The translations under genes and the position numbers were made by a program. Source: Candidatus Margulisiibacteriota bacterium (GTDB taxonomy: Bacteria > Margulisbacteria > WOR-1 > O2-12-FULL-45-9 > XYB2-FULL-48-7). From it: 57,870 nucleotides of DNA. The notes beneath the pieces are model-generated. The model ran no database searches. It was given only the letters and a program-made list of their open reading frames with translations, and was not told where the DNA came from. The stretch covers positions 1-57,870 of the forward strand of contig JBAZZV010000010.1 of assembly GCA_041658645.1 (NCBI GenBank), given 5' to 3'. Below are positions 40,974 to 41,969 of the stretch, one piece after another. Every line of letters begins with the position of its first letter. The stretch's first letter is position 1.

Positions 40974-41969
40974 CTAGGTGGGGAGAGTAAGCTTTTTAAC
41001 CGAAAATAAATCACAACCGTTGCTCGTATATTCATATAAAAGATCAAAAGCCTTTTTTAACTCCACAAATTGCTTGGCGGCCTCCGGATTATCTGGATTT
41101 TTGTCGGGGTGAAGCTTTCCGGCCATGGCACGGTAGGCCCGTTTAACCTCTTCCGGAGGGGGATCTTCTACTATTCCCAAAACTGCCTTGGCATAGAAAA
41201 TTTCATCCGGAGTTAATTTCTTTATCTCAATAGTGGCAAAACTGTAAGGGGGCAGAGGGCCTACGCACTTAAAGTTTATTTTACCCTCATACTTTCTATC
41301 TAATTCCGCTAGTTCCTGTTCAAAGACCTCCTTTTTATCTTTATCAAGCAAAAAAGCTGTATTGAAAATCATCCTGTCATTTAAAGTAGCATGCTTACAA
41401 AAAGCGCCAGCTTGTCCGCCAGAGGCGGACAAAGCCGTGATTATCTCCTCGGCAATTCTATCTTTTTTTCTATCCAGGAAATCTTTAACCATTTTTCCAA
41501 GGATTATGCCACCCTGAATTCTTTCGCCGGGAGGCTTTTGAGTAACCTCGTCTTTGAAGCATTGAATCTCTGCTATTTCTCCTATCTCTTTTAAGACGCC
41601 ATTCATCTCATTCCAAATGCCCACCAAATCCAATTCGATTTTCCCGCTTAAGGTTTCCATAATTTCTTTAAATAGTTTATAGCCCTTTTTCATTATTCTT
41701 TGAGTTTCGTTATCTCCGTCTATAAAAGTTCCAAATTTGAGAGGAACAACTGAATAATTCTGCATGACTTTTTCAATGATAGATTGATGTCTAAGCAGGT
41801 AATTTACTAGCTCATCTTTGCGCAGAGTCGCGAAAGGAATTGGTTTACTATCACTTACTACCAAAGAAATATCTTCATAAGGGATAGTAAAAATCTCCCC
41901 ACCGATCCCCTGGATATCAAAGGTCTGCAGCTTATTGTCCGGGATGACACAATAGAGGTATTTCATCAA
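40974..41969 (-). CDS. GvpL/GvpF family protein (paralog 3) fused to a C-terminal J-domain
   Basis: [11 protein letters not shown]... and VGPLPPYSF (GvpF), followed by [39 protein letters not shown], a DnaJ J-domain with the HPD tripeptide. Confidence 0.75.
   Translation of the reverse strand: [331 protein letters not shown]

Follow-up and report, generated by a model that had tools for sequence, protein, structure and literature searches.

A GvpF paralog fused to a J-domain points to a dedicated chaperone module in gas-vesicle operons

Introduction

Why would a gas-vesicle protein carry a J-domain, and which ATPase would that domain serve? The question is raised by a stretch of 57,870 nucleotides from a Candidatus Margulisiibacteriota bacterium (contig JBAZZV010000010.1 of assembly GCA_041658645.1; the whole stretch is called the window here), in which a gas-vesicle (gvp) operon encodes a protein, GvpF-J, that joins a GvpF-type domain to a C-terminal J-domain. 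J-domain proteins are adaptors: a module that binds a client or a site brings Hsp70 there, the HPD loop of the J-domain triggers ATP hydrolysis, and Hsp70 clamps the client. A first reading of this DNA, made without database searches (the sequence-only reading), had proposed that GvpF-J recruits an Hsp70-type ATPase to nascent vesicles, and that a gene two places downstream encodes the candidate ATPase.

The shell protein GvpA is very hydrophobic and prone to aggregation, and how cells keep it soluble and add it to a growing vesicle is a long-standing question. Binding of GvpA and accessory Gvp proteins is known for haloarchaeal and B. megaterium GvpF, and experiments identify GvpF as the primary binder of the hydrophobic N-terminal part of GvpA (PMC7688916; PMC11445434). 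From interaction screens, GvpF has recently been proposed to be chaperone-like (PMC11445434). On the evidence assembled below, we consider it likely that GvpF-J is a class C J-domain co-chaperone that recruits an Hsp70 and whose client module is a GvpF-type gas-vesicle protein.

Results

GvpF-J joins a GvpF-type domain to a genuine J-domain

The open reading frame (ORF) at 40974..41969 on the minus strand is continuous and uninterrupted in the ORF list. A TTG at 41969 lies one codon 5' of an ATG at 41966; a G-rich, Shine-Dalgarno-like stretch comes before this ATG, which shares bases with the upstream gene's stop codon (TGATG). Read from ATG 41966 to the TAG stop codon at 40974-40976, the protein has 330 amino acids (aa) and matches, at 100 % identity, the NCBI-annotated protein P0001, labelled 'GvpL/GvpF family gas vesicle protein' in a Candidatus Margulisiibacteriota metagenome-assembled genome. 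Its parts are the following.

40974..41966, minus strand: coding sequence of the GvpF-J fusion (ORF list, sequence, two-domain Pfam match, 100 % identity to P0001)
41217..41966, minus strand: GvpL/GvpF domain, residues 1-250, GvpF-like (PF06386, 169.9 bits; Foldseek match 6l5d; paralog identities)
41022..41210, minus strand: J-domain, helices I-III, residues 253-315 (PF00226, 50.8 bits; PDB matches; AlphaFold; Foldseek match 5nro_B)
41103..41111, minus strand: HPD tripeptide H286 P287 D288, codons CAC CCC GAC (read from the sequence; invariant in 60/60 members)
40977..41021, minus strand: C-terminal tail in the place of helix IV, residues 316-330, with a predicted beta-strand at 321-326 (AlphaFold)

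Both domains named in the sequence-only reading scored above their Pfam cut-offs, and the sequence strings that it quoted are present. GvpL_GvpF (PF06386) matched residues 3-245 (E 1.3e-49, 169.9 bits against a cut-off of 23.6) over profile positions 2-244 of 245, and DnaJ (PF00226) matched residues 263-312 (E 1.8e-13, 50.8 bits against 27.8) over profile positions 5-54 of 63. A sequence search of the PDB paired the N-terminal part with the GvpF crystal structures 6l5d and 4qsg, and residues 261-316 with about 35 J-domains, including E. coli DnaJ and the DnaK-bound 5nro_B. The AlphaFold model, built with 60 homologues as input, has a mean predicted local distance difference test score (pLDDT) of 93.4 and a predicted template-modelling score (pTM) of 0.82; a GvpF fold is followed by helices at 253-263, 271-285 and 296-315 and by the beta-strand at 321-326, and the HPD tripeptide sits between the second and third of these helices. 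Foldseek ranked GvpF 6l5d first for this model, and then J-domains: 6l5d_B superposed with a template-modelling score (TM) of 0.84 (E 2.5e-14), 4qsg with TM 0.75, and the J-domain of 5nro_B with TM 0.80 and a root-mean-square deviation of 2.3 Å. A GvpF/L paralog and a real J-domain in one protein are thus confirmed.

The operon encodes four GvpF/L paralogs, of which the fusion is one. Its GvpF domain is 36 % identical to the GvpF-like paralog at 44747-45496, 28 % to a second GvpF-like paralog and 26 % to the GvpL-like paralog at 36780-37562. It scored below the NCBIfam equivalog cut-offs for cyanobacterial GvpF (NF052351, 73.8 against 350 bits) and GvpL (NF045778, 58.2 against 200 bits). Judged by these comparisons, the fused domain is a distinct paralog, GvpF-like rather than GvpL-like, and it would presumably bind GvpA. 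The solved Microcystis aeruginosa (4qsg) and Anabaena (6l5d) proteins and haloarchaeal GvpF/GvpL share with residues 1-250 the fold and the Pfam family, and known GvpF and the fusion alike lie in gvp operons. However, the solved GvpF chains, at 237-253 residues, leave no room for a C-terminal J-domain, and the model clusters of Anabaena and Microcystis have plain GvpF.

On its Pfam score, its PDB matches and the confident model that superposes on 5nro_B, the J-domain is bona fide. The HPD tripeptide is invariant in 60 of 60 aligned members, at identities down to 31 %. We take the essential residues of DnaJ to be Y25, K26, H33, P34, D35 and F47, the equivalents of Y278, R279, H286, P287, D288 and F300 in the fusion when the register is set by H286 = H33; for Y25, K26 and F47 of E. 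coli DnaJ, Genevaux and colleagues reportedly found this in 2002. Position 278 is Y in 57 of the 60 members, position 279 is R in 46 and K in 3, and position 300 is F in 42 and M in 15.

The sequence-only reading had called the J-domain canonical. The PF00226 match, the HPD tripeptide and helices I-III bear this out, but helix IV is absent: in the model the predicted beta-strand at 321-326 replaces it, and the four-helix topology is not predicted. A C-terminal tail of similar character recurs throughout the 60-member alignment. To our knowledge, helix IV is not needed for Hsp70 stimulation. Among DnaJ models, only the J-domain matched (42.5 bits against an NCBIfam cut-off of 377). The class A/B architecture, in which one chain also has a G/F-rich region, a zinc-finger domain and C-terminal client-binding domains, is missing, and zinc fingers occur on separate small proteins; GvpF-J is therefore assigned to class C (type III).

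The fusion is conserved across many phyla

From 326 relatives in species-representative genomes we kept 80 loci, with flanks of up to 10 kb. The full fusion is encoded in all 80, which span well over ten phyla: Margulisiibacteriota/Saganbacteria, Nitrospirota, Nitrospinota, Planctomycetota, Omnitrophota, Desulfobacterota, Chloroflexota, Actinomycetota, Verrucomicrobiota, Acidobacteriota, Auribacterota and others. Of the 120 best clusters at 90 % identity, 118 have both Pfam domains, at identities to GvpF-J down to 32 %. A query restricted to the junction (residues 225-330) retrieved about 200 clusters at 50 % identity (E <= 1e-10) among 1.84 billion representatives, and about 146 of the top 150 matches run from the GvpF motif through the J-domain. 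In the 60-member alignment the C-terminal GvpF motif GPLPPYSF is invariant and the length of the linker between GvpF and J-domain is fixed. The survey of GvpF-DnaJ fusions that the sequence-only reading had suggested therefore returned the same architecture in about 200 clusters and in 80/80 loci, and by these sequence comparisons GvpF-J is an old, selected architecture. Databases name its members GvpL/GvpF family, hypothetical or, once, 'DnaJ-domain-containing protein'. One fusion contig (L060) is binned as the archaeon Candidatus Methanoperedens; it is short (3.6 kb), so mis-binning and horizontal transfer cannot be told apart there.

Related gvp clusters encode their own Hsp70

A search of the 57.9-kb window found no encoded Hsp70, and a housekeeping DnaK is therefore the presumed partner in this organism. 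We probed the 80 loci with the nucleotide-binding domain (NBD) of E. coli DnaK; this probe and the E. coli DnaJ J-domain were used for similarity and register only, and Hsp70 calls were confirmed independently by Pfam. The DnaK probe matched at least 14 of the 80 loci, where the matching gene always follows a GvpJ-like gene directly, on the strand of the gvp cluster and at its distal end. This count is a lower bound because several copies lie at the very edge of the 10-kb flank. The cluster Hsp70s are genuine, full-length proteins, with PF00012 scores of 634-670 bits and, where complete, 569-620 aa. Their identity to the DnaK NBD is 45-56 % (39 % for the shortest, a truncated fragment in L027), and in L038 gaps of 17 and 32 bp separate the gene from its neighbours. 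They occur in at least six phylum-level lineages (Chloroflexota, Nitrospirota, Desulfobacterota, Edwardsbacteria, Aerophobota, Auribacterota, Planctomycetota). In pairwise, cross-phylum comparison they are 49-83 % identical to one another and 45-56 % to E. coli DnaK, and in alignment RIINEPTAA, the R167 contact motif, and LVDVTPLSLG, the linker, are both intact. The R167 motif and the interdomain linker of DnaK are, from structure work on DnaK and J-domains, the elements through which J-domains act.

In a reciprocal test, we searched metagenome contigs with the L038 Hsp70 and then scored the genomic context of the matches. Hsp70s at 69-81 % identity to the L038 copy lie within a gvp cluster in 8 of 8 loci with upstream flank, and in five loci (L083, L085, L086, L092, L093) the fusion is visible and is the sole J-domain match. 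Most Hsp70s at 50-58 % identity are arranged like housekeeping dnaK genes, a dnaJ-type J-domain following about 2-2.5 kb downstream, and no copy in this range adjoins gvp structural genes. These comparisons show a gvp-specific Hsp70 clade, found only in gvp context in this sample and established for the Desulfobacterota-type copy only. The proposal that the J-domain recruits an Hsp70-type ATPase thereby gains comparative support: fusion-bearing gvp clusters encode a full-length Hsp70 of their own, of a clade that appears tied to gvp context. Because the dedicated Hsp70 is confined to one cluster architecture, its co-occurrence with the fusion is suggestive and not universal.

Two further arrangements were seen around these genes. 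In L083, the Hsp70 comes after a GvpJ-like protein of 372 aa that has a weak GRAM/Vps36 (PH-like) extension (8597-9715), and an Hsp20-domain protein and a 765-aa duplicated ArsA/Get3-type ATPase follow the Hsp70 (11757-15490); the ArsA/Get3 family handles hydrophobic tail-anchored proteins. In L094 and L095, the Hsp70 shares 58 % identity with the L038 copy, and a match to Volactin, a family of actin homologues, lies just upstream of it, an arrangement also seen in gvp locus L035 (10194-12799). The three loci may represent a third arrangement, one that joins an actin-like gene and an Hsp70.

The J-domain could instead be a structural or docking module that has no co-chaperone activity, stabilizing the GvpF fold, for example, or forming a Gvp-Gvp contact. 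The beta-strand tail in place of helix IV, the lack of an Hsp70 gene in the window and the pTM of 0.82, which suggests that the modelled J-domain is held in a fixed orientation relative to the GvpF domain, all fit such a role. J-like domains that have lost Hsp70 coupling usually lose the HPD tripeptide, however, and here it is invariant in 60/60 members; a dedicated Hsp70 clade moreover co-occurs with the fusion, with no other J-protein nearby. We consider the docking role unlikely, and recruitment of an Hsp70 remains the reading that we prefer.

Hsp20 and a Cdc48-family ATPase are the steadiest neighbours of the fusion

All genes of the gas-vesicle operon, from ~49344 to ~34469, lie on the minus strand. 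Around GvpF-J they are, in order:

49135..49344, minus strand: gvpA, first gene of the operon, 69-aa canonical GvpA, the major shell protein and presumed ultimate client
between gvpA and the zinc-finger gene at 47237-47557, minus strand: two coiled-coil-like proteins
47237..47557, minus strand: small DnaJ-type zinc-finger protein (PF00684, 36.9 bits)
46218..47150, minus strand: GvpN
between GvpN and the zinc-finger gene at 45489-45866, minus strand: orf117
45489..45866, minus strand: small protein with a DnaJ-type CXXCXGXG zinc-finger domain (PF00684, 44.2 bits)
44747..45496, minus strand: GvpF-like paralog
44217..44750, minus strand: Hsp20/alpha-crystallin small heat-shock protein in a GvpH-like position (PF00011; NCBIfam Hsp20, 145.5 bits against a cut-off of 140)
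41966..44200, minus strand: Cdc48-family double-ring AAA+ ATPase (TIGR01243, 908.2 bits against 802.65; CDC48_N, CDC48_2 and two AAA domains)
40411..40974, minus strand: orf187, weak winged-helix signal (HTH_24, E 0.07), no Pfam or NCBIfam match
39298..40407, minus strand: Volactin-family actin-like ATPase (PF25216, 305.3 bits)
after the actin-like gene, minus strand, in order: GvpF-like paralog, GvpG, zinc ribbon protein, GvpO
36780..37562, minus strand: GvpL-like paralog, after GvpO
after the GvpL-like paralog, minus strand, in order: GvpJ-type protein, GvpK, orf86, second GvpA/J-type protein, orf107
34469..35161, minus strand: orf230, conserved at the distal end of related clusters

Three unassigned ORFs (32215-34229) lie between the operon and the flanking MutL, TopA and PanC genes, which mark the DNA as bacterial. 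The best promoter-like site of a promoter scan is at 49874-49847, upstream of gvpA; within the operon, the promoter and terminator scan gave 33 promoter-like sites against 27.8 in shuffled sequence and no convincing break around the fusion. A tRNA scan found none.

We compared every protein of the window's cluster with the 80 loci by tblastn. The gene order Hsp20, Cdc48-like, GvpF-J, GvpF is kept across loci. Among the 52 loci with at least 2.5 kb of upstream sequence, 40 have the Cdc48-like gene directly upstream of the fusion and 44 have it somewhere in the cluster; in the fully flanked loci, Hsp20 is present in 23/23 and a DnaJ-type zinc-finger protein (of the 45489-45866 type or a paralog) in 16/23. 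Hsp20 and the Cdc48-family AAA+ ATPase are thus the steadiest neighbours of the fusion, and the latter, which the sequence-only reading had left unmentioned, is its most constant ATPase neighbour. Walker A and B are intact in both rings of the Cdc48-like protein, whose pore loops are aromatic (KFYG, KYVG) and which has no HbYX tail. With the J-domain on GvpF and CXXCXGXG zinc fingers on two stand-alone proteins that comprise little else, the functions of DnaJ seem to be split over the operon. A description of the Cdc48-like gene as a gas-vesicle gene was not found in the searchable literature.

In many Planctomycetota and Nitrospirota loci (L009, L016, L052, L069, L080 and others), the Cdc48-like gene and the fusion are separated by a small conserved ORF (M..IIEKIKNLFKCK..KKEE...) that the window lacks. 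We had considered strict translational coupling of the two genes as a feature of the family and rejected it, as the median gap over 50 loci is 78 nt despite the TGATG overlap in the window.

Its constancy at the fusion's side makes the Cdc48-like ATPase a conceivable target in its own right: the J-domain may have been repurposed for this ATPase, as an adaptor, for example, that delivers GvpF-bound clients to the unfoldase. The overlap of its stop codon with the start of the fusion in the window fits this idea, yet the junction is not tight in general. Further, the invariant HPD and the conserved DnaJ-essential positions are what coupling to Hsp70 predicts, and we know of no J-domain that activates an AAA+ ATPase. 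The J-domain also persists in loci that lack Cdc48, and all four such fully flanked loci have a dedicated Hsp70 in the cluster. A J-domain redirected to Cdc48 therefore strikes us as distinctly improbable. That GvpF-J, as an Hsp70 co-chaperone, would cooperate with the Cdc48-like ATPase is a separate matter, and one that we infer from their shared context.

The ATPase two genes downstream is an actin homologue

The sequence-only reading had named the product of the gene two places downstream as a candidate Hsp70-type ATPase. This assignment fails: the protein is a Volactin-family actin homologue (PF25216, 305.3 bits against a cut-off of 35, profile positions 3-321 of 321) with no match to HSP70 (PF00012) at E<0.01 in Pfam, and few clusters have one. 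In alignment with DnaK, the 369-aa protein ends before the Hsp70 linker and is without the R167 motif RIINEPTAA and a substrate-binding domain. The best folds for its model in Foldseek are MreB, PilM, EutJ, MamK and crenactin; owing to a shallow alignment the model reached only a moderate pLDDT of 67, and these matches are indicative only. Hsp70 NBDs appear only from rank 38 (5obv at rank 38, then 4gni and 5mks), and the atypical Hsp70 4gni is also a marginal sequence match (E 0.22). On Pfam, fold, absent motifs and rarity, the Volactin-like ATPase was rejected as an Hsp70-type partner.

Homologues carry the JGI name actin-like, and some co-match MreB. They are ~70 % identical across phyla, against ~40 % for neighbouring gvp genes, which suggests that the protein forms filaments; the Volactin of Haloferax is an actin homologue that does so (PMC10869688). 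Such a filament may position gas vesicles, in analogy to MamK and magnetosomes. The gene was found in 12 of the 81 sequences searched, in 2 of the 23 fully flanked loci and in 4 of the 36 loci with at least 9.9 kb of downstream flank. Just upstream of it lies orf187, in the window as in L009, L016, L028 and L048, so that orf187 and the actin-like gene (39298-40974, minus strand) look like a pair inserted into a minority of gvp clusters. We judged the actin-like gene to be an accessory cytoskeletal gene and not the partner of the J-domain, and orf187 to be context only, outside the J-domain mechanism.

Could the J-domain nevertheless regulate the ATPase activity or filament dynamics of this actin homologue on gas vesicles? 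The two genes share an operon, two places apart, and actin-like proteins and the Hsp70 NBD have the ASKHA fold in common, in line with the weaker Foldseek matches and the marginal hit to 4gni. But the surfaces that a J-domain contacts (R167 motif, interdomain linker, substrate-binding domain) are missing, the best folds and the strong Volactin score point elsewhere, the cross-phylum identity suggests a filament former, and the J-domain is present in all the loci and persists in most of them without an actin-like gene. We regard this pairing as very unlikely.

The contig around the operon

Two poly-G runs of ~30 bases each, at 49644-49691 and 50313-50339 on the plus strand, bracket the gene of an XRE-type helix-turn-helix regulator (49952-50368) that is divergent from gvpA; the first run follows a (GT)8 repeat. 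Artefacts of two-colour sequencing chemistry or joins made in assembly may explain them, or they may be real homopolymer tracts. The fusion itself might be suspected of being artefactual, with a frameshift, the loss of a stop codon or the assembly having joined gvpF to a dnaJ fragment. This suspicion could lean on the metagenome-assembled contig and these suspicious runs ~8 kb away, but the ORF is continuous, the model is confident over the junction and the same two domains with a fixed-length linker recur in hundreds of independent assemblies from many phyla (118/120 clusters, about 200 junction clusters, 80/80 loci), and we consider an artefact excluded for practical purposes.

Discussion

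Since GvpF binds GvpA and has been proposed to be chaperone-like, the fusion reads as a GvpA-specific class C J-protein. We propose that its GvpF domain would bind hydrophobic shell proteins (GvpA and GvpJ types) or a nascent assembly complex, and that the HPD loop and basic helix II of the C-terminal J-domain would dock an ATP-bound Hsp70, whose ATP hydrolysis the J-domain would set off. Where a vesicle is being assembled, or taken apart, Hsp70 would thereby be clamped onto the aggregation-prone shell protein. For one cluster type, this partner would evidently be the dedicated Hsp70 paralog of the gvp operon. Hsp20, the Cdc48-family unfoldase, GvpF-J and the small zinc-finger proteins lie together in a conserved chaperone block of the gas-vesicle clusters, a module that would serve the assembly, the quality control or the recycling of the shell.

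Several points weigh against Hsp70 recruitment by GvpF-J. The J-domain has no helix IV. The window encodes no Hsp70, a dedicated copy is seen in one cluster architecture only, and no GrpE was found downstream of the Hsp70 in L083, the sole locus checked for it. The co-occurrence counts are conditional on the presence of the fusion, by which the loci were chosen, and stimulation of an Hsp70 ATPase by GvpF-J is, for all members, something that we infer from sequence. We still hold Hsp70 recruitment to be likely; the domain architecture, its conservation, the synteny and a gvp-specific Hsp70 clade are direct observations.

A wider picture is possible, and we put it forward tentatively, with more doubt than belief. 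The gas-vesicle operons of many uncultured phyla might amount to a self-contained proteostasis machine that serves this organelle alone. Its members would be Hsp20, an unfoldase of the Cdc48 type, GvpF-J as the adaptor, zinc-finger proteins of the DnaJ type as holdases and, where the cluster has one, a private Hsp70; the J-domain would couple a GvpF-bound shell protein to Hsp70, with hand-off to or from the Cdc48-like ring. If this were true, it would be a bacterial Hsp70/Cdc48 bi-chaperone for the ATP-driven insertion of GvpA into, or its extraction from, an extremely stable amyloid-like shell, and the growth or recycling of gas vesicles in these lineages would be chaperone-driven rather than self-assembling.

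In the full-text gas-vesicle literature searched, we found no description of the fusion or of Hsp70 or Cdc48 genes in gvp clusters: DnaK/DnaJ occur in PMC12848028 only in a reference, and a paper on metagenome-assembled genomes (PMC9324843) mentions merely 'genes for gas vesicle production'. Our observations point to an undescribed chaperone module for gas-vesicle building. GvpF-J, the gvp Hsp70 clade and the Hsp20-Cdc48 block tie GvpF to ATP-dependent chaperoning, and they offer a natural experiment with testable predictions on how GvpA is handled. Heterologous gas-vesicle expression for acoustic reporter genes leads to proteotoxic stress (PMC12848028); given that stress, a dedicated chaperone module would be a candidate part for improving such expression.

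Four known systems offer comparisons, and HscB-HscA, auxilin and TopJ are the nearest to the fusion in their logic. In HscB-HscA, which serves Fe-S cluster assembly, a specialised J-protein likewise binds one client class through its non-J domain, and there, as in some lineages with the fusion, a dedicated Hsp70 paralog distinct from the housekeeping DnaK is encoded in the same operon. HscB has an N-terminal J-domain and the client IscU, whereas GvpF-J has a C-terminal J-domain and GvpF as client module; many fusion clusters, the window included, are without a dedicated Hsp70, and for the Hsp70 of L083, which we liken to HscA, no adjoining exchange factor was found. Auxilin/GAK, which acts in clathrin uncoating, resembles the fusion in having a lattice-binding domain followed by a C-terminal J-domain that brings Hsp70 to a self-assembling shell; it is eukaryotic, its binding domains are unrelated and its known role is disassembly.

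TopJ of the Mycoplasma terminal organelle is, like the proposed GvpF-J, a bacterial class C J-protein for the biogenesis of one organelle, but its non-J region is unrelated, its J-domain is N-terminal and the organelle is another; the NCBIfam TopJ model matches the fusion weakly, through the J-domain (33 against a cut-off of 512). The network of small heat-shock proteins, DnaK-DnaJ and ClpB contains the same types of component as are found here in one operon, with the Hsp70 only in a sister cluster type. It differs in that the DnaJ functions here are split over separate proteins, and the AAA+ protein of the operon, being of the Cdc48/VAT type and not ClpB, has no M-domain for Hsp70 docking. 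The components are therefore of known kinds; what is new is the combination of a GvpF-targeted J-protein, a gvp-specific Hsp70 clade and an Hsp20-Cdc48 block.

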